The notes beneath the pieces were generated by a model, which ran no database searches, was not told the DNA's origin, and worked only from the letters and a program-made list of their open reading frames with translations. 64,000 nucleotides of DNA from Candidatus Latescibacterota bacterium (lineage in GTDB: Bacteria > Latescibacterota > UBA2968): positions 6,048,001 to 6,112,000 of the forward strand of contig OZ244960.1 of the NCBI GenBank assembly GCA_965222605.1. Reading direction: 5' to 3'. The position numbers and the translations under genes are program-made. How positions within the stretch are numbered: the first letter of the stretch is position 1; every line of letters begins with the position of its first letter. This document shows, one piece after another, positions 12,934 through 53,546 of this stretch.

Positions 12934-13061
12934 ATGCTGTTGCCGAATTGGTGGAGAGGGAGCCTGCGGTTGGAAAAACGGCTATTTGTGACCTGAATTT
13001 AGGCTCTGTAACCCCTATGTTTAGTTGCTCTGGGACAGAATTCGGAATTCGGCAACAGCAG
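12934..13061. mobile_element. MITE (128 bp)
   Basis: Perfect 15 bp IR TGCTGTTGCCGAATT (12935-12949 / 13046-13060), 8 bp duplication CCAAAGCG (12926, 13062). Confidence 0.75.
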
Positions 13062-14988: not shown

Positions 14989-15133
14989 TTATTGGCTAAC
15001 ATTGTATATAATTCCCATACTTTTTTCATCACGGGCTCCTTTGGTTGAGGACACAGCGTTTTCACGGTTTGAATCTGCTGTATCCAATTTACATTGGAGC
15101 CTCTACTATTTCAACTAAGATAGGCACAATACC

Positions 15134-16250
15134 ATTGACAGGGCAGGCTGTGATACCGATTGCTAAGCCCGATGGTTCTCCGTGGCCTTATCGCGTGTTT
15201 GATCCGTGTATTTGGAAGAAGGGCGATTATTATTATTCGCTTTCGGGTGGTACTTTGCCTGGGCCGGGCAAAAAGTTTAAGCGAGCCAACTTTTTGTTGC
15301 GTTCACCTGATCTCGTGAATTGGGAATTTATGCATCCGTTTGTTGAAGACGATTTGTTTACGCTGATGGGCGATGATGGGGCTTGTCCCTATTTTTGGCC
15401 GATTGGGGATCGCCATATGTTGCTCTTTTTCAGTCATATGAGTGGTGGACAGTATTTGCTGGGTGATTACGATGAAGAACGCGATAAATTTGTGGTTACT
15501 GCGCATGATAAGTTTAATTTTGGGCCATCTGTTCCGTCTGGCGTCCACGCGCCGTCGGCAACCCCCGATGGCGAAGGTAATATCATTGTGATTTTCAATA
15601 TGAACCCGGGTAAGCCGACGGATCGCTGGAATCAAATTATGACCTTGCCGCGCAAATTGACTTTGATCGGTGAGGAAGACGTGCGTGTCGAACCCGCTGG
15701 TGATGTCGAATCGCTACGGGGTGACCATGTTCATGTAGATGGCATGACTTTACCTGCCAATGAGGAGATCGTGCTTGAGGGTGTTCGTGGCAATGCGATT
15801 GAAATCGTGGCTGAGATTGATGCTAAAAACGCGTCGATGTTTGAGATGGATGTGTTGCGCTCGCCCAATAAAGAAGAAGTGACGCGTATTATGTTTTACA
15901 AGGAACGAGGTCTGCGCAAAAGGTCGTTGCCTCCGGGTCATCGAAAAGGGGTGAAGACAAACTTCCACAGCGTGCTTACGATTGATTCCTCTCTTTCTTC
16001 GAGCTTACCTGATGTGAGGATGCGTGCACCAGAAACTGGATCTTTTGTGCTCGATGAGGACGAAAAATCGCAGTTGCGTGTGTTTGTGGATAAGAGCGTG
16101 GTTGAAGTTTTTGTCAATGGCAAGCAGTATGTAGCTGTGCGCGTTTATCCTGGCCGAGAAGACAGTGTGGGTGTCTCGCTACGCTCACAGGGGCAGGATA
16201 GTGAGTTGATTTCGTTGGATGCTTATCAGATGGAAAATATCTACGAATAG
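15134..16250 (+). pseudogene. GH32 glycoside hydrolase, 3' part
   Basis: FDP motif, LRSPDLVNW, ACPYFWP, MTLPRKL, C-terminal LRVFVDKSVVEVFVNG beta-sandwich. Confidence 0.88.
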
Positions 16251-34931: not shown

Positions 34932-36521
34932 ATGTGCAGGCATATCCTCGCCTTGCTATCCATCGCGCTTCTGATCCAACCACTTCGAGCCGATGTCGCA
35001 TTAGAACAGGTCCCCAATCCAGATTTTGATAATAGTGGCGTGGTTGATTTTCCCGACTTTTTGCTATTTGTCGCCAGGTTTGGGGCGCGCCAGGGCGATG
35101 AAAAGTATGATGATCGTTTTGATCTGGATGGCGATGGCGAGATTGGATTTGGCGATTTTGTGAATTTTGTCGCAAACTTCGGCAAAACGATCACGCCAAA
35201 TGGGGGGGCGAATCCGACAGTGGGTGATATAAAGATTCTGGGTTCGTTATTTGTCTCATCGGTCTGGGCTGGGCATCCCGTGGGGTTTGACCTGTTGACT
35301 TATGGTGATGTACAATTTGTCGCGTTTTACGATGCCGACCGCAAAATGACGGTGGGGATGCGAAATTTAGATGGCGAAACGTGGACATTTGCACAGCCCA
35401 AAGGTGTATGGTTGGAATATCGAGGCCGCCTGTCGTCGGAAATCGGGTGGGACACTCACAATTATCTAACTATGGCCATTGACGCCGACAATCACATTCA
35501 TTTGAGCGGGAATATGCATGTGGATCCGCTGATTTACTTTCGCACAACGCGGCCACTCGATGTGACGAGTTTTGAGCGCATCGCTTCTATGGTCGGCAAA
35601 AATGAAAATCGCTGTACCTATCCCGTGTTTATGCGCGGTCCGAATAATGAATTGATTTTCCGATATCGAGACGGCAGTAGTGGCAATGCTGTTGAATTTT
35701 ACAATATCTATGATGTCGAGACCAGAACATGGCGGCGGTTGCACGATACCCCGTTATTAGACGGATTGGGTCGGATGAATGCGTACGCGCGCGGGCCTCA
35801 GAAAGGTCCCGATGGGATGTACCACATGGTCTGGATGTGGCGCGATACACCCGATGCTGCAACCAATCACAGTATCTCATATGCCCGCAGCCGCGACCTG
35901 GTCGCCTGGGAAACGGGTGGCGGCGATGCGTTGGATTTACCGATTACAATAGAAAGCGGTGCCATCGTCGATCCCGTGCCGTCGAGGGGAGGGATGATCA
36001 ATATGACGCAGTCATTGGGTTTTGACCACCAGAAACGCCCGGTGATTAGTTATCACAAGCACGATGAGAGTGGATACACGCAAGCCTATTGTGCGCGGTT
36101 GGAATACGGCGAATGGGTCGTGTACAAGGTGAGCGATTGGACCTATCGGTGGGAATTTGGAGGGGGCGGATCAATTGTCGCAGAGATTCGGTTGGGCAGC
36201 GTAAAGGTGGCATCCGATGGGGGCCTGAGTATGAGTTATGTGCATGTAAAAGAAGGACGGGGAATCTGGAGGTTGGATCCCCAAACCCTGCAAGTGATCG
36301 GAACTTATCCGCCGCCTCAGAGTACGGTACCCAGGGAATTGGGGCGGGTGACTTCTCAGTATCCGGGCATGCAGGTCAACACGCGTGGAGCGCGGGGGTC
36401 GGGCACAAGGCCCGGCGAGCGATATATCTTGCGCTGGGAAACGCTGGGTCGCAATCGGGACCTGCCCCGAGAGGAGATCCCACCGCCGAGTGATTTGAGA
36501 CTTTATATTCTCGAGAGATGA
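34932..36521 (+). CDS. Secreted protein with EF-hand/dockerin-like pair and BNR-repeat beta-propeller
   Basis: Signal peptide; DFDNSGVVDFPDF and DLDGDGEIGFGDF; DTHN, IHLSGNMH, TYP.F, YRDGSSGN, SYARSRDL..W. Confidence 0.8.
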   Translation: MCRHILALLSIALLIQPLRADVALEQVPNPDFDNSGVVDFPDFLLFVARFGARQGDEKYDDRFDLDGDGEIGFGDFVNFVANFGKTITPNGGANPTVGDIKILGSLFVSSVWAGHPVGFDLLTYGDVQFVAFYDADRKMTVGMRNLDGETWTFAQPKGVWLEYRGRLSSEIGWDTHNYLTMAIDADNHIHLSGNMHVDPLIYFRTTRPLDVTSFERIASMVGKNENRCTYPVFMRGPNNELIFRYRDGSSGNAVEFYNIYDVETRTWRRLHDTPLLDGLGRMNAYARGPQKGPDGMYHMVWMWRDTPDAATNHSISYARSRDLVAWETGGGDALDLPITIESGAIVDPVPSRGGMINMTQSLGFDHQKRPVISYHKHDESGYTQAYCARLEYGEWVVYKVSDWTYRWEFGGGGSIVAEIRLGSVKVASDGGLSMSYVHVKEGRGIWRLDPQTLQVIGTYPPPQSTVPRELGRVTSQYPGMQVNTRGARGSGTRPGERYILRWETLGRNRDLPREEIPPPSDLRLYILER

Positions 36522-38424: not shown

Positions 38425-39876
38425 TCAATACAGCGGCCTGTAACGCAGGTTGCCGCCTTCTTCCTGTTGTTTTTTGTAATCGGCTTCAAGCGCCTCTCGC
38501 ACCCAGTATTGCGGTGCAGAGACGTAGTTCGATTGGTGTTCCTGGTTGTCGAGCCAGTGTCCGAGCAAGCGGGATTTGAGGTCGTGTTCAACATGGGAGA
38601 GATCCGCGTCGCCCGCGCGGTTGACAAGTTCGTCGGGATCGTTTTCGAGGTCGTAAAGTTCGGCAGATCCATCGGCGTAGTGCGCGTATTTGTAGCGTTC
38701 GGTTCGCACCATAACGCGACCGCCAATTTCGCAAAATGCAGCCTGTCGAATGGTCGCGGTGGGGTCTTTGAATAGTGGGCGAATGTCTTCGCCTTGAAGT
38801 GTACCGGGTGGTTTGGCATCGCAGGCGTGATAAAAAAGCGGGACGAGATCAATGATGCTGACAAGACCCGATGCGCGCTGATGGGCAGGGATATCGGGAC
38901 CGCGAATGATGAGGGGGACGCGAGACATGCAGTCGTAAAAGAAGCCTTTGAAGGGCATACCGTGATCGCCCAGTGCGTCGCCGTGATCGCTGGTGAAGAT
39001 GATGAGGGTATCGTCGAGTACGCGATGGGCTTCGAGTGCGGAGATGATTTTGCCAATGCCTTCGTCAATCAGGCTGATGTTGGCGTAGTAGTGCTCGCGC
39101 CATTTGCGGTAGTGCTCTGGCGTGGCCTGTGAATAGTCCAGGCGAAACATGGAGTTGGACAGGCTGCCGCTACCTCGGTCCCTTTGTGCGGGTGGTTTGT
39201 CGGCGAGTTCTTCTGCGGAGCCGACGGGTTCTGGAATGGGTGCGTCGGCATACATAAGGGCCATGTCTTCTGGGGGATCGTAGGGGTCGTGTGGTCCGGG
39301 AAAGCTGACCCAGGCGGCAAAGGGATCGCTCCCATTTTTTTGGAGCCATTCGGCTGCCTGGTCACCGACAAAGCCATCGACGTGGAATTTGCGGTCACGC
39401 GGTGTGATGGATGCGCCCAGATTTTCGTAATAACCCGGCAATGTGGTGGGGTGCGGCCGGTCGAGGCCGTGTGCAGCGAGAAATTGTACGTGGTGGTCGG
39501 GCAGGTATATGTGCCGTTTGTCTTCGGCCATGATGCGTTCGTCAAAGCCCTGAAGCGAATCCCAGGGATGAAAGTGCATTTTGCCAATGGCTGCGGTGCG
39601 TCGTCCAGTTTGTGCTATGACACGCGGCCATGTCGGCACATGATCGGGCAACCAGTTGCCATTGCCTGTCACGCCTGTCACGCTGGGGTATTGACCGCTC
39701 ATGATGGACGCGCGGCAAGGTACGCATACAGGGGATGGGACAATGCAATGGTCAAATACCATGCCTTCGCGTGCAAGACGGTCGAGGTTGGGGGTTTGCA
39801 TAAAGTCGAGGCCGTAACAGGGCAGGCTGTCCCAGCGCTGTTGATCGGTGGTAATTAAAAGGAGATTGCGAGCCAT
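38425..39876 (-). CDS. Sulfatase
   Basis: ITTDQQRWD, CVPCRAS, GKMH, PHDPYDPP, TSDHGD. Confidence 0.9.
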   Translation of the reverse strand: MARNLLLITTDQQRWDSLPCYGLDFMQTPNLDRLAREGMVFDHCIVPSPVCVPCRASIMSGQYPSVTGVTGNGNWLPDHVPTWPRVIAQTGRRTAAIGKMHFHPWDSLQGFDERIMAEDKRHIYLPDHHVQFLAAHGLDRPHPTTLPGYYENLGASITPRDRKFHVDGFVGDQAAEWLQKNGSDPFAAWVSFPGPHDPYDPPEDMALMYADAPIPEPVGSAEELADKPPAQRDRGSGSLSNSMFRLDYSQATPEHYRKWREHYYANISLIDEGIGKIISALEAHRVLDDTLIIFTSDHGDALGDHGMPFKGFFYDCMSRVPLIIRGPDIPAHQRASGLVSIIDLVPLFYHACDAKPPGTLQGEDIRPLFKDPTATIRQAAFCEIGGRVMVRTERYKYAHYADGSAELYDLENDPDELVNRAGDADLSHVEHDLKSRLLGHWLDNQEHQSNYVSAPQYWVREALEADYKKQQEEGGNLRYRPLY

Positions 39877-40062
39877 AAAGTGCTCCAGAATAAAGGTGAG
39901 TTCAGGTGGATCAAAAGGACGGGACAAGATAGGATGGAGAAATAGGTATGGCAAAGTATTTCTGTTGGTCAGGTCAAAGGAATTGACGTTGACGCCAATA
40001 AGTTTTATGTTCAGGAATTGAACCCCACCCAATTTAGCGTCTGTTTGTCCAGGAGGCTTGCA

Positions 40063-41001: not shown

Positions 41002-41143
41002 CAAACGATGTATCCCAGAGTGTTGTGGCCCTTATACCACATAACCACCCCTCAAAAAAAAATCGTAACCCCCCCGGGAAAACCCAAAACCCCCACCCCT
41101 CTCCCACTTCTACACAAGAGGTAAAGATGTAAGGAGACAAGAG

Positions 41144-41266
41144 TTAAAAACGCCGGATAACTCGAAAACCGAAGCTGCCGTCCCGGAGAACGGTGGTAAA
41201 CCCGCTGCGATTCGCCGAACGCAAGTCCCCCGGTTCGCCGTACCACGAACCACCACGCAACACGCG
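41144..41266 (-). repeat. DGR variable repeat VR2
   Basis: 41159-41203 aligns to TR 44360-44404 with 14 mismatches, 13 at TR adenines. Confidence 0.9.
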
Positions 41267-43154
41267 ATAACCGCAGGCCCCAGACTCCCACTCACTCCCG
41301 TCTGTAGGAGCACCCACATAGCTATCATTCCAACAATCTTCCACCCACTCCCACACATTACCGTGCATGTCGTGAACACCCCAACCATTCGCGCTGAAGC
41401 TACCCACTGGTGCCGTCTCATCATTATCCCACCGACTGCCGCAACCATCGCAATTGGAACGGTTGCGACCTATCTCGTTACCCCAGCTATACCGCGTATC
41501 CGTCCCTGCCCGTGCCACATACTCCCATTCTGACTCGCTCAGTAAACCATACCTGTGACCCGTCCTTGCTGACAACCAACGCACATAAGACTCTGCATCG
41601 TCCCAACTCACATTGATCACTGGCCGATTACCTCAACCCCAGCCTCTATCCTCAGGACGATGCCCACCGCATCCTCCTGCATTTACACATGCATCCCACT
41701 CAGAAAACGTCACTTCATACACACCCACGGCCAGAGGATACCCTATATTCACGCGATGACGAGGTCCCTCATCATCATGACGGCCATCCTCGCCACTGGA
41801 TGACCCCATCGTGAATGATCCCGACGGCACTACCACCATCTCTGGGCATTCCGCACAGTCCTTACGTCCAATAATGCTATCCAGACCCGCGCTCGCTTTC
41901 TTATGTCCAGGCTCCAATGCCAATACCGCCTGATACTTCTCCCACGCATTCGCACCAGCAGGACTCGTCAGACGATCTCGTGCAAGATCTTCCTCTGCAC
42001 CTGATAACAGCGCAGACACCCTCGCTGCGTGTTCTCCTTCCTGCGCTTTAAGACGCTGATTGGGCACATATTCATATTGATAATATGAGACACCCCCTAT
42101 CAACACTGCAAGCAGACAGGCAATCGTAGCAAATAATTTCCCTTTAGATTTTTTGGGAGATTCTGATCGGTCATCGGTGCGCTGATGCACGGGGGACATC
42201 GACTTTCTGGCGATCCTGTCGTTCCGGTGGGGGAGTGGGTGGAGGCTCTGTCGGAGGAATACTCACGCCGCTTCCTGTTTCTTCTCCCAGCGCAACACGC
42301 CATTCAGCGATACTTTGTGGACGATTCGCCTTATGTACCTGCAACGACCTATCTATCGCTGAAAGAAATTCGTCACTCGCTCGACCCGCACATTGCTCAA
42401 CCACTGGCATCAGCGCGTCTTGGACTACTCTTTCTGTCGCATCCTCCGGCACTTGACCGGTCAACGCATGGTAGCACACGGCTCCCAATGCATAGATGCC
42501 TGTCCAGGGTCCTTGATCACCTCGACTTGAATACTGCTCTATTGGCGCGTAGCCCGGTGTGATGATGGACGTAATCGAACGGCTCTTCGTACTTATCGCT
42601 TGCCGCGCTGCGCCAAAGTCCAGCAACACAGGCGAATGGTCCGCATCCCGTATGATGATATTGCCCGGCTTGATGTCCCGGTGCAAGAAATCAGCCCCAT
42701 GCACCACCTCCAAACCTTCGAGGATCGGATACAAAATGGTTTTGAGTTCTTCTTCCCTCAGTGTCCCTCTGCTTTGAAGAAACTTCGATAAGGTGTCACC
42801 CTCGGCATATTCCATCACAATATACGCCGTGCCATGTGCCTGAAAAAAATGATGCACTTTAATAATGTGGCGATGGTCAAACCGGGCTAAGGTGCGCGCT
42901 TCGTCCCAAAAGCGATCCAATCCCCACGCAAAATCCGAGGCGGCCTGGGAGGACAGCGGTACGACCGACATATCGTGATCACGAACCGCAAGACCTTCGG
43001 GCAAATACTCTTTGATTGCCACGGGAATATCCAGTGTCATATTCCAGCCGAGATAGGTAATGCCAAAGCCGCCTTGACCTAAGATGCGGTGAAATTCAAA
43101 ATCCTGTATGCGCGTGCCCTGTGGCAGTGCCAATCGGTGGTGTGATTCGTTCAT
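41144..43154 (-). pseudogene. Ser/Thr kinase-TM-FGE-sulfatase/CLec protein, DGR target 2 (frameshift plus nonsense codon)
   Basis: Kinase motifs LGQGGFG, VAIK, HRDIKPGN, DFG; frameshift at ~42193 relative to the paralog; in-frame TGA at 41633-41635 in GWG*GNRPV; C-terminal RVLRGGSW..GFRV. Confidence 0.88.
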
Positions 43155-44170
43155 CTCGTTCCTTTCGATTGGGTTGTGGTGTCGGGGGCTGTTAATGAAT
43201 TCGCGGGGGTGTCCTCAGTCTTTTCCTTTGACGATTCCTCGCTCACTTTGCCTGTATCGGTCTGCTTTGATTGCTGAACGGGAGACCCTGTGAGCTTTTC
43301 TTTAAAGGCAGACCAAAGTCCCGACAAGCCTGTTTCTTGTTTTGATTCTTGCGTCTCTTCGCGCGGACTGGATTCCTCATCGGGAAGCATGCCCTCCCCG
43401 CAATCGGCTTCTGGGCGGTAGAGCAATACCGTGGTATTGTCCTGATTGGGCCGTCCGACCTCTTCCACAGCATGGATGAGTGCCTCGGCGACTTCTTCAA
43501 GCGGCGCGTCATGCTTGTTCTCTATAATACGCGCGATCTCTTCATCCTCAAGGGTCATTACACCATCACTGGCCAATAACAGGCGGTCGCTTTTCCGTAT
43601 CGCAATCGGTTGGGATGAGACATCTATCAGGTGAATCTCATCGCCCATGACCGCTGACCGCAGGGCATGGCGGTTGGAATCCGTCGCCGCTTCTTCCTCT
43701 GTCATGCGCCCGACCGCCACCAGGTTTGCAAGCACGGGTGCCATGGAGTGATCGGCATTGAGGCGGTGCAATTTGCCGTCGCGAAACAGCCACAAGGGAG
43801 AATCGCCCACGCTGATCCAGTCGAGTCCATGTTGTGAAATGACTGCTGCGACCACGGTTGACCCCATGCCCTTCAGTTCGGGATTTTCGTCCGTTGCTTC
43901 GGCAAGGGCGTCATTGGCTGCGGTGAGACAGGCGCGCAGACAATCCGGTATTGGCCCCTCTGTGCTGTGATAGGTCTCCACAAAGGTCTTGACCACCATT
44001 CTGCTGGCCGTATCGCCGCTGACGTGTCCCCCCATCCCATCGGCGAGCAATAACACTTCGCCTCCGTCAGTGTCGGGATCGCCGCGCTCAATCAGGCCGT
44101 AATCGTCCTCCTGATATTCACGTCCGCCGGGAATTTGTTGTGCGGCAAATCGGCCTTTTAGTCGATTCAT
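43151..44170 (-). CDS. PP2C-family Ser/Thr phosphatase
   Basis: GREYQED, LADGMGGH, MGST, VGDS, DHS, LASDG, QDNTT. Confidence 0.92.
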   Translation of the reverse strand: MNRLKGRFAAQQIPGGREYQEDDYGLIERGDPDTDGGEVLLLADGMGGHVSGDTASRMVVKTFVETYHSTEGPIPDCLRACLTAANDALAEATDENPELKGMGSTVVAAVISQHGLDWISVGDSPLWLFRDGKLHRLNADHSMAPVLANLVAVGRMTEEEAATDSNRHALRSAVMGDEIHLIDVSSQPIAIRKSDRLLLASDGVMTLEDEEIARIIENKHDAPLEEVAEALIHAVEEVGRPNQDNTTVLLYRPEADCGEGMLPDEESSPREETQESKQETGLSGLWSAFKEKLTGSPVQQSKQTDTGKVSEESSKEKTEDTPANSLTAPDTTTQSKGTR

Positions 44171-44227
44171 GGTGTTCCTCCATAACGGCGCAAGACCGCT
44201 GCTGTTTCGTAAGCATCGTAAAATATA

Positions 44228-44405
44228 GTGGTGTCCCTTCCTCACAGGTGCGAGGCAAAAGGAACACCACTCCTACCTCATCATGACCGCCCCTGGACGC
44301 CCCGTTGCACTCCCGGCAACATCCTGGTGTTATCGGTTCTGGCTAACGAGCGTGCGGACAACTCGAAAACCGTTATTGTTGTTCCGGTTTTCGGTGGTAT
44401 TCCTG
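44228..44405 (-). ncRNA. DGR template repeat (3' remnant, 44355-44405) and downstream structured flank
   Basis: AGG AAT ACC ACC GAA AAC CGG AAC AAC AAT AAC GGT TTT CGA GTT: AAY-rich copy of both VRs; long hairpin at 44228-44270. Confidence 0.88.
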
Positions 44406-44748
44406 TGTGCGGGCACAGGCGATGCGCCGCCGCAGGTCACGCTTGAGGATTTCGTGGTCAATAGCAGGGAAGTAGCGATAGAGGTCGCAGCGCAATACAT
44501 GGCGAAAACGGTCTCGGAATGTTTCGTAGCGGGCTATGGCGCGATGGGTTCCCTTGCCCTTGCGATTGGCATAGGTATCATAAATAAAGCCGCGTTCAAA
44601 AATCGGCTCGCATACCGCGCAAAAAGCGTGATGCACCACCCGATCTCGAAAGGGCGCAGCCGAGACGATGCGGTGCTTGGGGTCGAATATCTCGATCTCG
44701 GTGTATCGCCCCGGACGGTATTGACCTGTTTTGAGTTCCCGCTCTAAG
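44406..44748 (-). pseudogene. DGR reverse transcriptase, internal fragment
   Basis: YRPGRY..IFDPKHRIVSAAPFRDRVVHHA, YANRKGKGTHRA, LRCDLYRYFPAIDH; no start and no YxDD region. Confidence 0.9.
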
Positions 44749-44912
44749 GGATTCCAACACGTTGAGGGCAGTACTTTGTATGCGGTCGCCCAGTAGGAAC
44801 TTCTGATTGCGGGGAAATCGCTCCAGTGTAGGCACGAGCCACAGGATGAACTGGTAATGTGCCTCCAGTGCCGGCCCAGTTTGACGTGCGTTGATCCTTG
44901 ACAGATCATTCA
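44747..44912 (-). pseudogene. avd: DGR accessory variability determinant, N-terminal half
   Basis: AGGAG RBS; ALEAHYQFILWLVPTLERFPRNQKFLLGDRIQSTALNVLESL four-helix-bundle Avd pattern, fused out of frame to RT. Confidence 0.82.
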
Positions 44913-45043
44913 AAAGATGGACTCCTGATAAAACACCCCTCAAAAAAAATCGTAAAACCCCCGGGAAAACCCAAAATCAACCCCCTCAAAATCCAAAACT
45001 CTCCCTCCCCCAAAAAAGAGGTAAAGAGGTAAGGATAAAAGAG

Positions 45044-45166
45044 TTAAAAACGCCGGGCAACTCGAAAACCGTAATCGTCGTACCGGTATACGGTGGGATT
45101 CCAGAAGCGATTCGCCGAACGCAAGAGCCTCGGATAGTAGTACCACGAACCACCACGCAACACGCG
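45044..45166 (-). repeat. DGR variable repeat VR1
   Basis: 45059-45103 aligns to TR 44360-44404 with 8 mismatches, all at TR adenines. Confidence 0.92.
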
Positions 45167-46978
45167 TCTATCGCAATTACCAGACTCCCACGCAGACCCA
45201 TCTATAGGTGCCCCCACATAGCTGTCATTCCAACAGTCTTCCACCCATTCCCACCCATTCCCGTGCATATCGTGAACACCCCAACCATTCGCCCTGAAAC
45301 TTCCCACAGATACGGTATTCCCTCTATACACACCTTTCCGACCAGTACCGTAGGTATAATTACCATTGTAATTCGCTTGATCCGTCGATATTGTTGTACC
45401 AAAATGAAAGGGCGTCTCCGTACCCGCTCGCGCCACATACTCCCATTCCGATTCACTCAGTAAACCATACCGGTGACCTGTCTTTTGAGATAACCAACGC
45501 ACATAAGACTGTGCATCGTCCCAACTCATGCACACCACAGGATGGCTATCCGCCTGAGAATAATTAGGATTACGCCAACTTATCCCTCTTCGATTCTCCC
45601 ATTTAATGGAGGAACTATTCCAAACATAACAAGAATTTCCCGCATTGTACCCCGTATCTGACACAAAACTGGAAAACTCTCTTCGCGTCACTTCATACAC
45701 ACCCACGGCCAGAGGATACCCTATATTCACGCGATGACGAGGGCCCTCATCGTCATAACGATCTTCCTCGCTACTGGGAGAACCCATCGTGAACGATCCC
45801 GACGGCACTACCACCATCTCTGGGCATTCCGCACAGTCCTTGAATTTCCTGCCTGCGCGATGAAGCTCTGCCTCGCGCGCTGCTGACAACCGATCTTCCA
45901 GTTCCGATTGGTAATAATAGACACCCCCTATCAGCACGGTAAGCAGGCAGGCTACTGTTGCAATTAATTTCCCTTTAGGTTTCTTGGAAGATTCTGAGCG
46001 GTCATCGGTGCGCTGATGCACGGAGGGAACAGCGACTTCCTCTCGATCCTGTTTTTTTGATGGGGGAGTGGTTGGAGGCTTTCTCGGGCCGCTTCCTGTT
46101 TCTTCTCCCAGCGCAACACGCCATTCAGCGATACTTTGCGGACGATTCTCCTTATGCACCTGCAACGCCCAATCTATTGCCGATAGAAATTCGACACGCG
46201 CTTGACCCGCGCATTGCTCAGACGCTGGAATGAGCGGATCAAGGGCTACTCTGTCTGGTGCCTCATCAGGACCCTCACCGGCCAAGGCGCGATAGCACAC
46301 CGCACCCAATGCATAAATGTCTGTACCCGGTCCTTGTTCTCCCCGACTCGAATACTGCTCTATTGGCGAGTAAGGTGGTGAGATAATCGCATCAATAGAC
46401 TGGCTCCTAATACCGATCGCCTGACGCGCTGCGCCAAAGTCCAACAGCACAGGCGAATTGTCCGCATCCCGTATGATGATGTTGAGAGGCTTGATGTCAC
46501 GGTGCAAGAAATCAACCCCATGCACCTCCTCCAAACCATCCAGTATCGGATACAAAATGGCTTTGAGTTCGGCTTCACTCAGCGGCCCTCTGCTTTGCAG
46601 AAACTTCGATAAGGTCTCGCCCTCGGCATATTCCATCACGATATACGCCGTGCCATGGGTTTGAAAAAAGCGATGCACTTTAATGATGTGGCGATGATCG
46701 AACCGGGCTAAGGTGCGCGCTTCGTCCAAAAAACGATCCAATCCCCACTCAAAATCATCTCGAAACTGACTCGCTTGTGGAGCTACGCTGTTGTCGCCTG
46801 TGCGCGTGGCTATATCCGATGGCAGGTATTCCTTAATCGCAACGGCTTTGTCCAGGTTGTGGTCAAAGCCGAGGTAGGTCATGCCGAAGCCGCCAAATCC
46901 GAGCACGCGCACCAGTTCGTATTCCTGGAGCCGATGCCCCTGGGGCAGGGCATTGAGGGGGTGGTGTGCGTCGTTCAT
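45044..46978 (-). CDS. Ser/Thr kinase-TM-FGE-sulfatase/CLec protein, DGR target 1 (intact)
   Basis: LGFGGFG, VAIK, HRDIKPLN, DFG; TM LIATVACLLTVLIGGVYYY; [45 protein letters not shown]. Confidence 0.93.
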   Translation of the reverse strand: MNDAHHPLNALPQGHRLQEYELVRVLGFGGFGMTYLGFDHNLDKAVAIKEYLPSDIATRTGDNSVAPQASQFRDDFEWGLDRFLDEARTLARFDHRHIIKVHRFFQTHGTAYIVMEYAEGETLSKFLQSRGPLSEAELKAILYPILDGLEEVHGVDFLHRDIKPLNIIIRDADNSPVLLDFGAARQAIGIRSQSIDAIISPPYSPIEQYSSRGEQGPGTDIYALGAVCYRALAGEGPDEAPDRVALDPLIPASEQCAGQARVEFLSAIDWALQVHKENRPQSIAEWRVALGEETGSGPRKPPTTPPSKKQDREEVAVPSVHQRTDDRSESSKKPKGKLIATVACLLTVLIGGVYYYQSELEDRLSAAREAELHRAGRKFKDCAECPEMVVVPSGSFTMGSPSSEEDRYDDEGPRHRVNIGYPLAVGVYEVTRREFSSFVSDTGYNAGNSCYVWNSSSIKWENRRGISWRNPNYSQADSHPVVCMSWDDAQSYVRWLSQKTGHRYGLLSESEWEYVARAGTETPFHFGTTISTDQANYNGNYTYGTGRKGVYRGNTVSVGSFRANGWGVHDMHGNGWEWVEDCWNDSYVGAPIDGSAWESGNCDRRVLRGGSWYYYPRLLRSANRFWNPTVYRYDDYGFRVARRF

Positions 46979-47013
46979 AGTATTTCCCTTGATGGTGTGT
47001 TCTTATTCCCGGG

Positions 47014-47718
47014 TTATTGTCCAGCACTTTCTTCTGTATCCTGCCAGTCAAACGCATCGCCGCACAGGGGCACAAAGCGAAGAATCGTATTGCCGATGCT
47101 AATATGACTCAGTGCGGGCAGTTCAGTCGGAATGAGCACAGGTTCGTCGTTGAGGTAGGTCAGGTTGGTGCCGCCGCCATGCTGTACGTAAAATTTCTTG
47201 CCCCGGGGATCGTAGGTGACAACCGCATGTCCACCGCGCGAAATTTGATCATCACCAAAATTGAGTTTGACGCGTGCGGTTTCTCCGCGCCCAATGGGAT
47301 TGGAGCCATAGCCCAATTGCATGGCCCTGCCTTTGCCCGGTCCTTCGACAATGGCCAACCATCCCACAACGGGATCATCCATGCCATCGGCTTTCTCTGC
47401 GCTTTCTTCCGACGATTGCGGACCTTTCTGCCTGGTACGACCACCTGTGTTTATGCGCGTGCGTTCTTCTTCATCCGAACGTCCCGCGTCGGTGGCTCGA
47501 CCACCGCCTTTCGGTACTGTTGGCCGTTGTTGCATTGGCTTTGTGGGATCCTCTAAACGTCCCCCACCGGGGGCTTGACCACCGCCCGGTGGCACTGACG
47601 GCCTGTTTGCGCCATCAGGTTGTGGCAGGGTATTCTCATCACGCCTGACATTCGGTGATGGAGTCGGCTTGCTTTTTTCTTCAACGATATTGCCATCGGG
47701 ATCGCGATAAACAGGCAT
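47014..47718 (-). CDS. FHA domain protein with disordered N-terminus
   Basis: VVGWLAIVEGPGKG, IGRG, ISRGGHA, TNLTYLN. Confidence 0.85.
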   Translation of the reverse strand: MPVYRDPDGNIVEEKSKPTPSPNVRRDENTLPQPDGANRPSVPPGGGQAPGGGRLEDPTKPMQQRPTVPKGGGRATDAGRSDEEERTRINTGGRTRQKGPQSSEESAEKADGMDDPVVGWLAIVEGPGKGRAMQLGYGSNPIGRGETARVKLNFGDDQISRGGHAVVTYDPRGKKFYVQHGGGTNLTYLNDEPVLIPTELPALSHISIGNTILRFVPLCGDAFDWQDTEESAGQ

Positions 47719-47730
47719 AACACTATCCTC

Positions 47731-48515
47731 CTATTTTTCATAGAGTCGGTTGATTAAATTATCCAAACAGTACTGCCCCGATTGATTCAGGGCCATTTCT
47801 TCTTTTTGTTGCACGATATGCAGGGCAAAAACCAACAGAGCCGATTGGATCAGGGCGAGTAAGGTCGTGTAAAAGGCCACGCTTAGTCGCCCGGTGATCT
47901 CCGCCAGTAGCGTTGGATCCTGGGGCTTTTCATTGCTTCCCGCATAATCCAGGGCAAAGGCGATCCCCACAACCGTGCCAATAAAGCCCAACGTGGGGAT
48001 CAGCCAGACGAGGTACCGCAACATGGTATATTTGAGTTCAAGCTCGTGCTGAAATAACTCCAGGGAGGAATTTAATAGGGAATTGGTCTGATTGACCGAT
48101 CTGCTCCCTTGAAATTGCAAAATGCAGCGCATGGTTAAGCGCTGTAAAAAGAATGTCCGTTCTCCCACCACTGGGCGCATCCTGTTGTAGAGAGAACCCA
48201 GGTCTTGCGCCCGCAACATGGTTGTTTCGTCTTCCGGCAGGTATCGCTTTGATAGTTGCGCCAATTCCAAATTAGATTGATTAAATTGCCCCCAAATCTC
48301 GCCACAGCCAATAAAAAACATAATCCACATGACATTTTGGATCGTAAACGGATAGAGGAAACTTTTCGTATGCCGGTCGAGCAAAAAAGCACCGGCTTGT
48401 GAATCCTTGCAGACAAAAAAATGCTCATTAACGCAATGGCGATAATGCCAATAACCGTACTAACCCCAAGTGCGATGAGGCGTTGATTTGTCTCTGCATT
48501 TTGACCCTGTGTCAT
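47731..48515 (-). pseudogene. MotA/TolQ/ExbB proton-channel family protein, frameshifted near 48407
   Basis: IPTLGFIGTVVGI and LSVAFYTTLLAL helices; N-terminal TM lies in a different frame. Confidence 0.75.
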
Positions 48516-48516
48516 G

Positions 48517-48909
48517 TTAGTCCTCGTTTTGAATGATTTCACCTGTTTCTATTTTGCGACGCACCGCCCCCTCGGGTAAGTCATTCGTCGGCGATTTCTC
48601 TTCGCTCGAATGCTCATCCCCTTTATTATCACCAGCACCTCGAGCGACCATAGCGATAAGTTGTGGTGCGGTCGTCTGATAGCGACCAAGCAAAATAACG
48701 TCCGTCGGACGAATAAAATCCTGCCTGATGGGGATCCATTCGCCATTTCGCGCAACATAACTTCCGCCGCTACTGCCGCAATCGGTCAGATAGAACGTCC
48801 CTTTTGCAGTCATGACCAACTCGGCGTGGATGCGCGAGACTGTGATGTCGTCAAGGCGAATATCCATGTCCGAATTGCGACCAATTTTATACGTGGAAAA
48901 GTTGGACAT
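48517..48909 (-). CDS. FHA domain protein
   Basis: IGRNSDMDI, VSRIHAEL, DCGSSGGSYV. Confidence 0.85.
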   Translation of the reverse strand: MSNFSTYKIGRNSDMDIRLDDITVSRIHAELVMTAKGTFYLTDCGSSGGSYVARNGEWIPIRQDFIRPTDVILLGRYQTTAPQLIAMVARGAGDNKGDEHSSEEKSPTNDLPEGAVRRKIETGEIIQNED

Positions 48910-48925
48910 TTCGAATCCTTTCTGT

Positions 48926-49306
48926 TCAACCGAGTTTAGCACCTACAAGGTACCCGACGTTCTGCTCTGTCAACTGTATTAAAAAATCGATACTGCCAGA
49001 CATATCTACTACGATTACAAACTTTTTTGCTATGGTCTTGATACCCAGTAAAACAGATGTACTATCTTTCTGTACCGCTTTGCCTCCGCCTCCTGCAAGC
49101 TTGTCTTTCTCTCCTATGAGTTTATCTTTCTCTCCCATGAGTTTGTCTCTCTCTTGGATGAGTTTGGCTATTTCTTCAGCATCGCCGGTATTTGGAAAGT
49201 ATGGAAACAGGACAAAGGCAATGAGTATGAACGCGCCCATTGCCGAAGCGAAGAGATCGAGCGCAGACATGCTGAAGATGTTCAGTTCTCGGTTGCGGGA
49301 TTTCAT
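48926..49306 (-). pseudogene. Membrane-anchored coiled-coil/VWA-like protein, apparently truncated
   Basis: FSMSALDLFASAMGAFILI anchor, EKDKL repeats, VIVVDMSGS MIDAS-like motif followed by a rapid stop. Confidence 0.55.
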
Positions 49307-49321
49307 TACGAGGCACTCCTG

Positions 49322-50719
49322 TTAAAATTTTGAAACCATGACCTCCAGACCACCCAGCGCAACGGTAGCGCCATAGTCTAACTGCGCTAGGCGAAATGGA
49401 GACAAGCGATGACCATTCAAGAACGTTCCATTACTCGAGTACAGATCTTCGATATAAAATTGGTCATCCTGAACTGTAATTCTCAAATGGCGCCGGGATA
49501 CCTGTTCATCATGGATAACTTCATCTACCAGATCGGGATGCCTGCCCAGTGAAAGTCCCGGGCGTTGCTCTGCAAATTTTTCTGGCGATAGCGCGATGTG
49601 AATGCGGTTGCCCTGACCGTCAAATCCGGCCAGCACCAGTCCACGTGTTGGGCGTTGTTTTTCTGGTTGTTGTTTTTCTACTTGTTGTTGAACCGCGCCA
49701 TCGCGTTCTCGCCTTCTGATAGGGCGGCTCATCTGATCTATGACTTGAATGATCTGTTGCCGGGGTCTTCTTAAGCCAAGTAACAGGGCTGCCAATGTCA
49801 AACTGCCCAATAATATGCCCCAGACAAGAGTTTGCTGGCTCGCTTCTTCTGCACGACGCTTTGCTTCATCTGCCTTTTGTTGCGCCTTTTCCATTTCCCG
49901 GTTTGCTTCTTCTGATCGGCGTTTGGCTTCTTCTGCCTGACGCTTGGTCTCTTCCGCCTCTTGAAGTGCCTCTTCCGATCTTCCAGAATCTCCATTACCG
50001 ACATTTGACAAACACGGACTGTTCTCTGATTGGAAGGGAATAGTGTGATATTGCAAGAGCCTTACCAATTCCTGAATATGAGAGGCATAGAAAGCACCTG
50101 GTTTCTCTCCTTCGATTCCCTGAGTATTCACGCCAACCGCTCTGCCACAGTCATCCAACAAAGGCCCACCGCTGTTGCCGGGATTGATTTGTGCACTATG
50201 GTGAAGAATGCGTAATTGTTGATTTCTACCCTCAAGTCCCCAGGGAGCCGTATAATCTCGGCTAATGTCGCCACTTCGCGCTGTTGTATCTTTGGCTTTC
50301 TCGTGTATATCGCCAACACTGGGATAGCCGAGAGAATACACCTTTTGTAATTTTTTGATTGGCGCGAGCGAAAGAGTAATCGGCGAAAGATTTATATTTG
50401 GGACATGCAGGATTGCCAGGTCGCGTTGAAAGTCTCTGACGACCACTTTCGCATCATACGATGTACTGGAATTTGTTGGCACTACCACGATTTTAAGGCC
50501 ATTCTCAATCACATGGTAGTTTGTCGCAATATAACCACTACAGTTTATCACAAATCCAGAACCTGTACCGGTCCCTTGACTTGTCTCTGTTACAATACGC
50601 ACGACACTCTTCTCAATTACATCAATAGTATCGACCAGCGCGGCGGCTGCATCGTGCCCGTGAAGTAGAAATGCGAGAACAAGACCGGCAAGACGCCAAT
50701 ATTTGAGTTTGTTTGGCAT
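49322..50719 (-). CDS. Signal peptide-trypsin-like protease-coiled coil-TM-FHA protein
   Basis: GSGF, TNYHV, DLAIL, NPGNSGGPL catalytic triad; TM; LGRHP, VSRRH, SSNGTFLNG. Confidence 0.9.
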   Translation of the reverse strand: MPNKLKYWRLAGLVLAFLLHGHDAAAALVDTIDVIEKSVVRIVTETSQGTGTGSGFVINCSGYIATNYHVIENGLKIVVVPTNSSTSYDAKVVVRDFQRDLAILHVPNINLSPITLSLAPIKKLQKVYSLGYPSVGDIHEKAKDTTARSGDISRDYTAPWGLEGRNQQLRILHHSAQINPGNSGGPLLDDCGRAVGVNTQGIEGEKPGAFYASHIQELVRLLQYHTIPFQSENSPCLSNVGNGDSGRSEEALQEAEETKRQAEEAKRRSEEANREMEKAQQKADEAKRRAEEASQQTLVWGILLGSLTLAALLLGLRRPRQQIIQVIDQMSRPIRRRERDGAVQQQVEKQQPEKQRPTRGLVLAGFDGQGNRIHIALSPEKFAEQRPGLSLGRHPDLVDEVIHDEQVSRRHLRITVQDDQFYIEDLYSSNGTFLNGHRLSPFRLAQLDYGATVALGGLEVMVSKF

Positions 50720-52075
50720 TTTTTATTCTCTGATCAAACGCACCTGAAAAACAACAGGCCCCAACTCGAGTTGATCGTTGTTTTGCAATACCACTGGTTC
50801 GCGCGGGTTGAGCGGGCTTCCATTGATCCGGGTGCCATTCAGGGCGTTCAGATCTTCTGCATATAGAGCCTCGGCGGTATAGACAAGCCTGACGTGCTCG
50901 CGGGATACGGCTTCGTGGTCGATAATATATTCGGCGTTGGCAGGGCTTCTTCCAAGCGTGACACCTGAAGACAGGGCCAATGCCGAGATATTCAACACAA
51001 AGGATTGGCCCGCGTTGTCCCGACCTTCTAATAGACATCTGTAAGGCGCGGGCTGTGGTGTCTGCGCGGCGGCTTGTTGCGCGGCTTCAGCCTTTTGTTC
51101 TGCTTCGCTCAAGCGAGAAGAACTCGTCTGCAATTGCGCCTTTTTCCTGCGCGCAAACATGAACCAGCCGAGAAGCACAAGGAGTATCAGGGCAGCCCCG
51201 GACACAATGGCCCATTTCAAATGTTGCGATGTTTCCTCAAGCGCCTGTATGATACTATCCTGTACTACTTTTCGTCTGGCGATACTATCCTGTATTGCTT
51301 TTTCCAGGGAATCGGTCCTTGCCTGTGCTCTTTTGAGGCGATCTTGTTCGGCTTGGAGACGGTCTTTTTCTGCCTGGAGACGATCTTCTGCCGCCCTTGC
51401 CGTCTTTTTTATAGAATCTTCTCGCGCTCGTGTTAAAGAATCGGTCTTTGCCTGTGCCCGTCTTAAACTGTCTTCTCGCGCTTCTGCGCGTTCAATAGCA
51501 CTCAAGCAGGCTTCTTCTTCTACTGTATGTGCAATTTCCCGGTCTTTGAGCACGGTAATGATATCGCCGCTGCGCAAGGCAAAAATTATTCCTCTGGGTT
51601 CCGCATCTCTCCGAAAGGGCCAGCGTGCGCTTTCCGGGTCCGGGAGGTTGATGGCGATGACATCCCCACATTCATTGAACAGGGGCATGCCGAATGCACT
51701 GGAAGTGATCAGGGCATTGTGCTGTAGCAGATGCACTACGGGATCGTCCGGGTTTTTGCCCGGCACATCCTGGTATGCACCAATGGTACCGCGAGCAATC
51801 TGGACACTATCCTGGGGAATAAACTTCAAAGTTTCCACACTCCGGCCCACATCAGCCCCTTGTTCGGACAAGTTGAGAGGCGGTAAATCCAGACCCTGCG
51901 CTTGCAATAAGGCGAGGTTCATTTCCCGGCTGGTAAAGATCTGCTGCGACGATAGTTCGGCACCGGTTTTCAGGGCCAGTACAGATAGTCTGTTTGCGTC
52001 CGATAGAAGGTGTGCATTTGTCAGCACATATCCCTCTGCATTAACGACAAAGCCGCTTCCTTCAGCTATTATTCT

Positions 52076-53123
52076 ACGTGATGTGTGACTTTAAATAGCG
52101 AAAAAGAGGTTCCTCGGCTATCTTGAATTGTTCACTAAACAAGAAGCCATTCAACGAAAGGAACCTCCGATGTATAATTTAGACCTTTTTGTCATTGCAA
52201 TCTACTGTTTTATTGAAGACGAACTCTATCCGGCTTTCTGTAAGGTGCATGGCAAGCCCCGTCGGGCAGGCTTTGACCCCGGTTTAAGTGATGCCGAATG
52301 CCTCACCATAGAAATCGTGGGTCACTTTTTGGGATATTCAAGCCAGAAAAAACTTTATGAGCAGATGAAAGAACACTTCATAGATTGGTTTCCCACTTTG
52401 AAAGACCGTCCTGCCTTTGTGCGTCAATGTGCCAATTTGTGGGTTGTCAAGATGTGGATGCAACAGCGGATTGTTGCCAGCTTGGAAGGGCATCAGGCAT
52501 CCTGCCAGATCATAGATACGCTACCCTTACCGATCTGTAAACTGGCAAGGCGACATTATCGCAAGATATTTACAAGAGAGCCAGTCTTTGAGTTCCCTCC
52601 CCCCTCAAAAGGCTTTTGTGCCGCCAAAAGTGAAGCATATTTTGGCTTTAAGGGTGGCCTTAGGATCACGGATTATGGTCTTATTGTCCACGCGCCGATC
52701 CTGCAAGCGTATGGACACGACAAGAACTGCCGAGACGCACTCCTGAATGGTACGATGGGAGAGACAACCGTCTTGGCAGATGCGGCATTTATGGACTTGG
52801 ACTGGCAAAAAAGGTGTTTTGATACCTACCGCATACGCATAAAGACACCCTTAAAGTCCAATATGAAAGAAAATCCTGAACGCACCCCTTTCATTTTGCC
52901 CAAAGCGAAGAAAGCCACAAGGCGATTAGTCGAAACCGTTTATGCACAATTGACAGAACGTTTACATATTGCCCGCATGAAAGTGCGAGATGCATGGCAC
53001 TTATTGAACCTGTGGCATACCAAAATCTTAACCCATACCATGTGTGTCTTTCTCAATATTATCAATTACAGAGACCCGCTGGATTTTGACGGTCTCGTAA
53101 AATTTTGAAGTCACACATCGCGT
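52076..53123 (+). mobile_element. IS982 family insertion sequence
   Basis: TIR ACGTGATGTGTGACTT / ACGCGATGTGTGACTT, 8 bp TSD ATTATTCT (52068, 53124). Confidence 0.92.
52170..53108 (+). CDS. IS982 family transposase
   Basis: LSDAECLT, IIDTLPLPIC, YFGFKG, LADAAF, RRLVETV. Confidence 0.9.
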   Translation: MYNLDLFVIAIYCFIEDELYPAFCKVHGKPRRAGFDPGLSDAECLTIEIVGHFLGYSSQKKLYEQMKEHFIDWFPTLKDRPAFVRQCANLWVVKMWMQQRIVASLEGHQASCQIIDTLPLPICKLARRHYRKIFTREPVFEFPPPSKGFCAAKSEAYFGFKGGLRITDYGLIVHAPILQAYGHDKNCRDALLNGTMGETTVLADAAFMDLDWQKRCFDTYRIRIKTPLKSNMKENPERTPFILPKAKKATRRLVETVYAQLTERLHIARMKVRDAWHLLNLWHTKILTHTMCVFLNIINYRDPLDFDGLVKF

Positions 53124-53546
53124 ATTATTCTGTTATTTTTGTACGCACGCACCCGCACAATGCTTTCAGATACGACATCGACATCTATTTCTGCAAACAC
53201 AGGACTGAGGAAAAGGAATACCACGAGATGCACAAACAGAGAAACACGCATGGCAATCTCCTATACCAGGGGGCGAACACAGGGGTTCGTCCCTGCGATG
53301 TCTGCCCCTATAATTGACAACTGACGTTACGCAATACCCAGGTATGGCGCGGCAAACAATTATCCACATACGATGTGGTTTACGTTGTGCATTTGGGTCA
53401 ACGAGGTTTATCTGGCAGAACCTGTACCCGTTTAGCTATTATTTTTTACTATATCGGTTTTAGACATACGTTTGTATTGATTTCGAAAATAATAATAATT
53501 TCTTCTTATAAGCCAATACCTGCTTTTAGCAAAATAATATGACTAA

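Follow-up and report, generated by a model that had tools for sequence, protein, structure and literature searches.

The locus described here raises two questions: whether a compact run of genes for protein kinases, FHA-domain proteins, a protein phosphatase, membrane proteases and a MotA/ExbB-like protein forms one system, and whether that system can still work in its present genome. The genes lie at 41144-53251 of a window of 64,000 nucleotides, by which the whole stretch of DNA analysed is meant, from a Candidatus Latescibacterota bacterium (assembly GCA_965222605.1, contig OZ244960.1, positions 6,048,001 to 6,112,000). An earlier note, made from the sequence alone, had read them as a reprogrammable surface sensor and likened it to an adaptive-immune receptor module. 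The observation behind it was partly confirmed, and the interpretation was partly supported for the family to which the locus belongs, not for this copy. The window probably contains a partly pseudogenised single copy of a conserved accessory envelope system with a motor-kinase-protease mechanism. It is very likely that the copy has decayed and that its diversity-generating retroelement (DGR) is dead, and there can be little doubt that the gene set as such is a conserved system.

All genes of the cluster are co-oriented on the minus strand, and Pfam matches and the reading of open reading frames (ORFs) gave the content and order that the note had listed. The description of a co-oriented cluster therefore stands, but 5 of the 11 units are damaged in the window copy, namely g1, g3, g5, the cassette of avd, reverse transcriptase (RT) and template repeat (TR), and k2. 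No lesion was seen in g2, g4, g6, k1 and the PP2C gene in the same comparisons, in which lesions were judged mainly against L113, the homologous locus of the same genus. By tblastn the system is present once in the source genome (6.34 Mb, single contig, 98.7% complete). Its protein-coding units, with TM standing for transmembrane, are as follows.

53117..53251, minus strand: 5' fragment of g1, first 45 codons with a signal-peptide-like N-terminus (tblastn with L113 g1 residues 1-45, 69% identity)
50723..52090, minus strand: remainder of g1, inactive trypsin-like domain, coiled coil, TM helix and cytoplasmic FHA domain
49322..50719, minus strand: g2, trypsin-like serine protease, coiled coil, TM helix and FHA domain; intact (Pfam)
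48926..49306, minus strand: g3, N-terminal TM helix with invariant Asp, coiled coil and vWA remnant
48517..48942, minus strand: g4, small stand-alone FHA protein; intact (Pfam FHA, 52.7 bits)
47731..48542, minus strand: g5, TolQ/ExbB/MotA-like protein with a -1 frameshift (Pfam MotA_ExbB, tblastn in frames -3 and -2, DNA alignment)
47014..47718, minus strand: g6, low-complexity N-terminal half and C-terminal FHA domain; intact (Pfam FHA, 29.2 bits)
45044..46978, minus strand: k1, Hanks-type Ser/Thr kinase, one TM helix and periplasmic FGE/CLec domain; intact (Pfam Pkinase and FGE-sulfatase)
43151..44245, minus strand: PP2C-type Ser/Thr phosphatase with a disordered C-terminal tail; intact (Pfam PP2C_2 and SpoIIE)
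42171..43154, minus strand: k2 piece 1, kinase-domain ORF of 327 aa (Pfam Pkinase)
41633..42199, minus strand: k2 piece 2, TM helix and start of the FGE domain (Pfam FGE profile positions 1-57)
41144..41620, minus strand: k2 piece 3, rest of the FGE domain (Pfam FGE profile positions 94-255)

The note had named beforehand conservation of the gene set as a unit as the point on which its proposal could fail, and the set was found to be conserved. In 20 loci from 18 genomes of three families, picked among the best-scoring of 47 match rows, the order g1-g2-g3-g4-g5-g6 was kept in 19; the exception was L124, which is rearranged and has no g3. A kinase gene was present at all 20 of these loci of the class and a PP2C gene at 18. 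A g2 homologue at E <= 1e-40 was found in 28 of 132 genomes of the class. The g5 profile matched 35 of the 168 genomes of the phylum, all of them in one class, among them 9 of the 20 other species of the genus; this distribution is patchy and of the accessory type. Database matches to g5 at E <= 1e-10 numbered 3215, some of which may be general MotA/ExbB relatives, and close matches (about 70% identity) carried the names of SAR86, Pseudohongiella and Gemmatimonadaceae metagenome-assembled genomes. In numbers, the system is frequent enough for further work.

Metagenomes were also scanned with the g5 alignment. This gave 80 loci, many of them on short contigs; 18 of the 80 have flanks of 5 kb or more on each side (well-flanked). 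Annotation was by single-query tblastn at E <= 1e-6, so the following counts are lower bounds.

g3: 53 of 80 loci; 18 of 18 well-flanked loci
Any FHA: 72 of 80; 16 of 18
Trypsin-FHA: 29 of 80; 12 of 18
Kinase: 39 of 80; 11 of 18
FGE: 18 of 80; 7 of 18
PP2C: 32 of 80; 6 of 18
All five classes: 10 of 80; 4 of 18
RT or avd: 0 of 80; 0 of 18

A small FHA gene stood directly upstream of g5 at 59 of the 80 loci. From these co-occurrence counts the constant core consists of g5, g3 and FHA. Kinase, PP2C and protease are frequent modules, linkage to a DGR is a rare, lineage-specific addition, and the hypervariable kinase-CLec protein is an optional input. Among distant variants, the trypsin domain is replaced by another periplasmic domain in L186, where a kinase-FGE gene is present without a DGR, and FHA is fused to Sel1 repeats in L166.

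The decay of the window copy is most easily read in g1, which is interrupted by an insertion sequence (IS).

52076..53122, no strand assigned: IS element of about 1047 bp (inverted repeats, target duplication and transposase ORF)
52128-53108, plus strand: DDE transposase ORF (Pfam DDE_Tnp_1_3)

The IS has terminal inverted repeats of 21 nt (52075-52095 and 53104-53124) and is bordered by a 9-bp target duplication, TATTATTCT, read at the junctions at 52067-52075 and 53123-53131. The g1 remainder aligns to residues 36-496 of L113 g1 with 64% identity and matches Pfam Trypsin_2 (from profile position 12) and FHA; g1 is split in two because the IS was inserted between its fragments. The genome contains five 100%-identical copies of the same IS and one copy at 93% identity, with copies in C1 near 3347111, 3559632, 5375781, 5471546 and 5847333, and the identical copies suggest that it transposed recently in this genome.

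Three further genes of the set were damaged by small changes or a deletion. The g3 product has 126 aa in the window against 264 aa in L113, and aligns by tblastn to residues 1-105 and 244-264 of L113 g3 only, residues 106-243 having been deleted in frame. Of its vWA domain, the 21 residues at the end and the DxSxS motif (VVDMSGS) remain; the core is gone, and a Pfam scan of the window protein gave no vWA domain match. A full-length g3 homologue matched VWA_3 with 31.6 bits against a cut-off of 27, and a PDB profile search matched the vWA domain to that of ITIH4 with E 8.8e-11. The gene that had been described as anchor/VWA-like thus proved to encode a protein of an Asp-helix/vWA family, but one from which the vWA core has been lost. 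In g5 one base is missing from a T7 run near 48418-48424, and about the first 41 codons are read in one frame and the remaining 228 in another (residues 1-41 and 43-270). Among 41 g5 matches in 35 genomes, only that of the source genome (G000) was truncated (positions 36-261).

The second kinase gene had been taken for a single kinase-TM-CLec gene with a variable region. This does not hold, as it now consists of three ORFs separated by a 2-nt gap and an in-frame TGA. In a DNA alignment of k1 and k2, k2 lacks 2 nt of k1 near 42196, just past the kinase domain; piece 1 ends after this gap, and the TM and FGE parts of k2 are out of frame with its kinase domain. Piece 2 ends at the in-frame TGA at 41633-41635 and is in the same frame as piece 3. 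Recoding of this TGA was considered and rejected, as the other genes here end normally under table 11; the codon presumably sits where typical FGE sequences usually have Arg. Downstream of each kinase-FGE gene lies a G/T-rich stretch with many homopolymers; the two stretches (41043-41097 and 44930-44984, 76% identity) are similar and show that k1 and k2 were duplicated along with their 3' flank.

The lesions were checked by aligning to the locus Logan contigs from four public runs of two studies. Runs X3 and X4 are from one sample, which may be the source of the assembly, and their contigs equalled the window without changed letters or gaps. The T7 run of g5 was crossed unchanged by contigs of X3 and, from the second study, X7. 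The in-frame TGA of k2 was confirmed in an X3 contig and the vWA deletion junction of g3 in an X4 contig, while the 2-nt gap of k2 near 42196 was bridged by no contig among those listed. A contig of X5 and X7 joined 52066 to 53123, skipping 1056 bases with 9 letters that fit either side; a closely related population therefore has a g1 free of the IS, and the insertion took place recently. As IS insertion, deletion, frameshift and nonsense mutation disable g1, g3, g5 and k2, the system encoded by the locus has very likely lost its function in this genome.

The DGR has fared no better. The following traces of it were found.

44725..44889, minus strand: avd fragment, residues 14-68 of a 132-aa homologue (tblastn with L124 avd, 85% identity)
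44406..44747, minus strand: RT fragment, residues 63-176 of a 375-aa homologue (tblastn with L124 RT, 94% identity)
44355..44405, minus strand: TR remnant, last 51 nt of a TR of about 115 nt (aligned to the L124 TR, VR1 and VR2)
about 45054-45168, minus strand: variable region VR1, in k1, ending 8 nt before the stop codon
about 41154-41268, minus strand: variable region VR2, in k2 piece 3 (alignment of the variable regions)

The other approximately 64 nt of the TR are deleted, so what had been listed as an avd-RT-TR cassette is reduced to fragments of all three parts. RVT_1 was unmatched across the 6.34-Mb genome at E <= 0.01, and tblastn of the L124 RT on the whole genome returned one RT fragment, that in the window, and no other. 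With no RT in the genome, VR1 and VR2 are frozen. Against the 51 nt that remain of the TR, VR1 is changed at 8 of 18 adenines and at 1 of 33 other positions, and VR2 at 13 of 18 adenines and 2 of 33 others. An adenine-biased TR/VR pair and variable regions at the C-terminal end of CLec/FGE targets were thus found, but neither an intact RT nor an intact avd. The DGR is intact and looks active in L124, a locus of genome G046 of the same genus, where avd (132 aa), RT (375 aa) and a full TR lie directly upstream of g1. In each of the variable regions of the five kinase-FGE genes there, 18-19 of the 34 TR adenines and no more than 2 of the 81 other bases are changed. L124 shows the DGR signature clearly, the window in part. 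The claim of a reprogrammable sensor consequently fails for this genome, which has no RT, and is supported for the relative with its intact avd-RT-TR and five variable regions.

The L124 operon is itself rearranged: g3 is absent, and the motor protein is represented by residues 135-217 only (7393-7866 and 7892-16000). Its five kinase-FGE genes are in tandem with an avd-like fragment after each, as if units of target plus avd start had been duplicated. In the source genome, further FGE ORFs with VR-like 3' ends were found outside the window, at C1:2697911-2698824, 5843103-5844934 and 1442916-1445954. Behind two of them lies an avd fragment (85% and 77% identity) but no RT; these ORFs look like further frozen DGR targets or remnants.

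What the intact system might do was approached through its conserved core. The g5 protein matched PF01618 (MotA_ExbB) with 43.1 bits against a cut-off of 22.9 and has three hydrophobic helices, like TolQ. These helices, like the other TM helices given here, were located with a crude hydropathy scan. An AlphaFold model of g5 had a pLDDT of 79.5, and Foldseek placed TolQ closest to it, then ExbB; the best match was 9avi_A (E 3.9e-4, TM-score 0.61 relative to the target). The MotA/ExbB-like assignment of the note is therefore correct as to domain and TolQ-like fold, although the gene here carries the -1 frameshift in its T7 run. Conservation in g3 is highest at the N-terminus, NIFSMSALDLFASALGAFILI, where residues D19, L20, F21, A22, G26 and F28 are invariant in 26 diverse sequences. 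Like a B subunit, g3 has a single N-terminal TM helix with a conserved acidic residue and is encoded together with the A subunit. PADLOC gave weak matches of g5 to ZorA (E 1.4e-4, 19 bits) and of the g3 N-terminus to ZorB, which is of the MotB type (E 1.7e-4, 19 bits). A protein atlas query with the g3 N-terminus gave no usable match, and PADLOC and NCBIfam hold no model for g3, g5 or the whole system. In one metagenomic variant, two tandem g3 paralogues, each with the Asp-bearing helix, lie upstream of FHA and g5 (L162, L168, L175, L176, L181, L183, L186, L202, L205-L207 and L209); they would fit a heterodimeric plug.

The two proteases differ in a consistent way. In g2 the triad H69, D100 and S183 is invariant in a 17-sequence alignment, and the TM helix was predicted at 298-316. 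The His-Asp-Ser triad was kept in 30 of 42 g2-type homologues and in 0 of 33 g1-type homologues, so the system typically pairs a live protease with a dead one, and the description of g1 as a pseudoprotease was right for its type. The FHA domains of g1, g2, g4 and g6 scored 56.6, 62.6, 52.7 and 29.2 bits against a Pfam cut-off of 20.7. Their Gly-Arg and Ser-x-x-His motifs could be read by eye; g4 has Gly at the usual Asn of the NG motif. A scan of genome contigs with the g2 alignment gave, among the matches listed, only unrelated trypsin domains of 30-43% identity (generic pattern GNSGGP).

Both kinase domains were matched by Pfam, with Pkinase scores of 119.5 bits in k1 and 126.2 bits in k2 (cut-off 31.7). 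GFGGFG, VAIKEY, HRDIKP and DFG were readable by eye in both, which agrees with what had been said of their Gly loop, VAIK, HRD and DFG motifs. The FGE-sulfatase domain of k1 was matched with E 6.4e-60. The k1 TM helix (residues 338-356) has six K/R before it and two after it, and from this bias the kinase is predicted to be inside and the FGE domain outside. The complementary topologies proposed earlier, kinase inside with CLec outside and protease outside with FHA inside, were in this way upheld by the hydropathy prediction. The PP2C protein matched PP2C_2 with 50.8 bits (cut-off 24), with DGMGGH and DNTT motifs read by eye, and fell below the NCBIfam Stp1_PP2C equivalog (148 bits against a cut-off of 230). 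A survey of 49 ORFs with a complete kinase domain from the 20 class loci showed that the sensor part varies. A TM helix was followed by fewer than 30 residues in 22 and by 30-150 residues in 3; it was combined with FGE in 11 and with another large domain in 6, this being ankyrin repeats in both of the two tested. FGE without a predicted TM helix was found in 4, and neither in 3. An intact copy of the system encodes from one to several membrane-bound Ser/Thr kinases, whose outer part may be lacking, polytopic, made of ankyrin repeats or of the FGE/C-type-lectin fold. The ankyrin-repeat kinases, in which a TM helix is followed by repeats in place of FGE, are at L127:12911-15067 and L115:10778-12901.

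From these parts a mechanism may be proposed. The g5 and g3 proteins would form an ion-driven motor like TolQR or ExbBD, in which the Asp-bearing helices of g3 would sit in the pore of g5; the chances of this pairing are about even. The kinases would phosphorylate cytoplasmic threonines once their outer domains bind ligand, and these marks would be read by the four FHA domains. In g1 and g2 the FHA domain lies close to the membrane and might then dock the protease pair on the motor, like TolA, TonB and GltG, whereupon proton flow could activate or move the periplasmic protease, and PP2C would erase the marks and reset the state. In some relatives the FGE domain of the kinases is diversified by a DGR; here the DGR formerly rewrote VR1 and VR2 and was later destroyed. 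The full phospho-relay in this wording is rather doubtful. The adaptive-immune-like function and the wiring from kinase through FHA to protease, as put forward in the note, are likewise inference. More ambitiously, the system could be an ion-driven envelope machine of a new kind and a programmable periplasmic recognition-and-proteolysis device, built of a TolQ-like pentamer, a vWA-tipped Asp plug and, where other motors have TolA or TonB, a live/dead protease heterodimer as output arm, gated by the docking of FHA on phospho-threonine and fed by interchangeable receptor kinases that are rewritten by a DGR in some lineages; we consider this picture improbable as a whole.

Several observations weigh against the proposal of a decayed motor-kinase-protease system. 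The g3 family shows no profile similarity to the three ExbD/TolR proteins of the genome (hhalign probability 0.3%), and MotB_plug was unmatched across the genome though the N-terminus of g3 is intact. The role of g3 as a B subunit is drawn from co-occurrence, the invariant Asp and one weak match. The g5 sequence matches solved stator proteins weakly, the PDB profile search giving only PomA with E 0.67. A predicted complex of three g5 with two copies of g3 residues 1-60 (natural assembly 5:2) obtained a score of 0.05 and a mark of 0.32, which speaks neither for nor against the pairing. As the -1 frameshift of g5 sits in a T7 run, ribosomal slippage could occur there. Kinase, PP2C or protease is missing in one third to two thirds of the well-flanked loci, by lower-bound counts, and a phospho-relay may not be obligatory. 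A predicted TM helix is absent from 3 of the 5 DGR-diversified kinase-FGE proteins of L124 (crude predictor), so not every such sensor faces the periplasm. Finally, the protein-protein steps of the mechanism are what we infer from sequence.

Three other explanations were weighed. An active reprogrammable surface sensor in this genome, in which two hypervariable lectin-fold kinases signal through FHA adaptors to an outer protease, could appeal to the intact k1, g2, g4, g6 and PP2C genes, to the adenine differences of VR1 and VR2 from the TR, to predicted topologies that fit and to the conserved operon. It is largely refuted for this copy and has to be regarded as very improbable: RT is absent from the genome, avd and TR are truncated, k2 is broken, g1 as first gene of the operon is split by the IS at codon 45, g3 lacks its vWA core, g5 has a frameshift, and the lesions recur in contigs of public runs. 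For the intact system, a Zorya-type function against phages or competitors was considered, in which the TolQ-like/TM-Asp pair would sense or cause envelope perturbation, the kinase array, in some cases diversified by a DGR, would recognise invaders, and depolarisation or proteolysis would abort infection. The patchy presence within the genus (9 of 20 other species), kinase paralogues that stand in tandem and differ in their outer domains, and the DGR-diversified targets of L124 would agree with it, as would loss by IS and deletions, which is typical of dispensable genes, and a CRISPR-Cas-like block that apparently lies beside the L113 locus (translations read by eye). The ZorA and ZorB matches and the relationship of the kinase domain to the PADLOC defence kinases mad6 and PD-T4-6 point the same way, but the former are at 19 bits each, the latter is expected for any Hanks kinase, and the system itself matches no PADLOC model. 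A ZorC/D-like effector gene was not seen in the cluster, and a phage role is a proposal from sequence and context. We consider this explanation unlikely.

A housekeeping function of the intact system appears slightly less likely again. It would make the system a regulator of the envelope or cell surface, with a vWA/FHA/kinase/PP2C module controlling a Tol-like process or a host interaction. An operon of Deinococcus that joins vWA, transmembrane kinase, stand-alone FHA and PP2C (10.64898/2026.01.23.701218, accessible part) and the actinobacterial triad of kinase, PP2C and stand-alone vWA (PMC7159879, accessible part) are compatible with it, as are the ankyrin repeats on some kinases of the system (2 of 2 tested) and the metabolic genes flanking the cluster in the window (sulfatase, enolase-superfamily, S9 peptidase). 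However, the system is absent from 133 of the 168 genomes of the phylum and 11 of the 20 other species of the genus. As these relatives lack it and the organism has survived its decay here, it is not essential. Diversification by a DGR and the arrays of paralogues suggest a changing ligand over a fixed physiological cue.

The reading that we prefer, a conserved motor-kinase-protease system of which the window holds a decayed copy, was compared with known systems. TolQR-TolA, ExbBD-TonB and AglRQS-GltG are ion-driven 5:2 motors whose transducer is anchored in the membrane. The g5 protein resembles their corresponding subunits in its MotA_ExbB domain, three helices and TolQ-like predicted fold, and g3 resembles its counterparts in TolQR-type motors in having a short N-terminal cytoplasmic stretch, one TM helix and an invariant Asp. 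In the Myxococcus Agl-Glt machinery, according to the accessible part of PMC11761067, the FHA domain of GltG adjoins a TM helix and was modelled on the cytoplasmic face of the TolQ-like AglR pentamer, and GltG was likened to TolA. To the extent described there, g1 and g2 are like GltG: bitopic, with a long coiled coil and with FHA beside the TM helix. In contrast to TolQR-type motors, g3 carries a vWA domain and not one of TolR, ExbD or OmpA type and has no ExbD or MotB_plug profile match, the g1/g2 'transducer' bears a trypsin-like protease instead of the TonB/TolA C-terminal domain and is oriented N-out/C-in, and kinases and PP2C are added.

The archaeal ArnA/ArnB proteins and the 'TerY-P triad' are related modules of vWA, FHA, kinase and PP2C. 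In Deinococcus, DRA0331-0334 comprise vWA, a transmembrane kinase, stand-alone FHA and PP2C in one operon (10.64898/2026.01.23.701218), and a kinase-PP2C-vWA triad occurs in actinobacteria (PMC7159879), both as given in the accessible parts of these sources. As far as these accounts go, those modules and the present system unite the same four domain families, with FHA proteins that stand alone and a kinase that spans the membrane. The present system differs in that the vWA protein is anchored in the membrane by an Asp-bearing TM helix, that a TolQ-like gene is always present and that the trypsin-TM-FHA pair is usual. In the accessible parts of the published accounts of such modules, MotA, TolQ or a protease is not mentioned in this context.

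Kinase-CLec proteins as DGR targets in cyanobacteria had been cited as known, correctly so: in the accessible part of PMC7517822 they are the commonest multidomain DGR target in these bacteria, and most targets are predicted to be cytosolic. A Pkinase DGR target is also drawn for Thiohalocapsa PB-PSB1 (PMC10907252, accessible part). Those proteins share with k1 and k2 an N-terminal Hanks-type kinase and a C-terminal FGE/CLec domain of which the last ~115 nt are the variable region; they differ in that the TM helix of k1 and k2 places CLec outside (predicted) and in that the DGR is dead here. The word 'FHA' is absent from the main texts of PMC7517822 and PMC10907252, whose supplements may list gene neighbourhoods, and in their accessible parts both papers discuss DGR kinases without defined partners.

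Other systems share single features. The vWA-MoxR-VMAP ternary systems, which are enriched in multicellular or aggregating bacteria, are alike in their vWA, trypsin, FGE and DGR domains (PMC7159879, accessible part); the vWA protein here has no effector domain, however, and its organising partner is a TolQ-like protein. Assignment to the conflict systems of Kaur et al. 2020 and 2021 was rejected, there being no MoxR AAA+ ATPase, VMAP or STAND NTPase in the cluster. Zorya has in common with the present system a MotAB-like pair outside motility, with the weak g5-ZorA and g3-ZorB matches. Unlike ZorA, g5 has 270 aa and a TolQ-like fold without the long tail; no ZorC/D-like genes are present, and FHA, kinase, PP2C and protease are not Zorya parts. 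Besides ZorA and ZorB at 19 bits each, no other Zor protein was matched among the eight proteins scanned, and the system was not assigned to Zorya. In type VI secretion, the PpkA-PppA-Fha1 threonine-phosphorylation pathway switches an envelope-spanning machine. It too relies on a Hanks kinase in the membrane, with a PP2C phosphatase and an FHA protein, but the FHA match here was 44.9 bits against a TagH equivalog cut-off of 120.25, no type VI secretion genes are in the cluster, and the motor, vWA and protease parts have no counterpart there.

In the literature searched, which left most subscription journals outside, no account was found that joins these modules with a MotA/TolQ/ExbB gene and a protease, nor a description of the full transmembrane operon, as the note had supposed. 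The system may be described as a TolQR-type motor combined with a module of Ser/Thr kinase, FHA, PP2C and vWA, and with a DGR in a subset; the finding is new at the family level and the function is a proposed one. If the proposal is true, the system would be a new member among the Tol, Ton, flagellar stator, Agl-Glt, Gld and Zorya motors, in which neither the output, a pair of proteases tethered to the membrane, nor the control by Hanks kinases, PP2C and four FHA domains would have a precedent. It would also give the DGR-diversified kinase-CLec proteins a downstream pathway, hitherto missing. In the source genome the locus is a decaying accessory island that shows the stepwise loss of such a system and its DGR.

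The genes flanking the cluster are metabolic and encode a sulfatase, an enolase-superfamily protein, an S9 peptidase and an oxidoreductase. The GC skew is negative over the cluster, while plus-strand genes elsewhere in the window give a positive skew. The sulfatase gene is at 38425-40032 on the minus strand (Pfam Sulfatase, E 1e-44) and was recorded as opposite to the cluster in orientation and skew; a BNR_4 repeat protein gene at 34932-36521 on the plus strand is likewise opposite in orientation and skew. One public run labelled as a sponge metagenome was tried as a clue to habitat and rejected: 0.08 of the sampled words were present in it, which says nothing about the habitat. Directly downstream of the operon in the homologous locus, at L113:11984-16137, are ORFs that by eye resemble Cas proteins (Cas1-like and Cas2-like).

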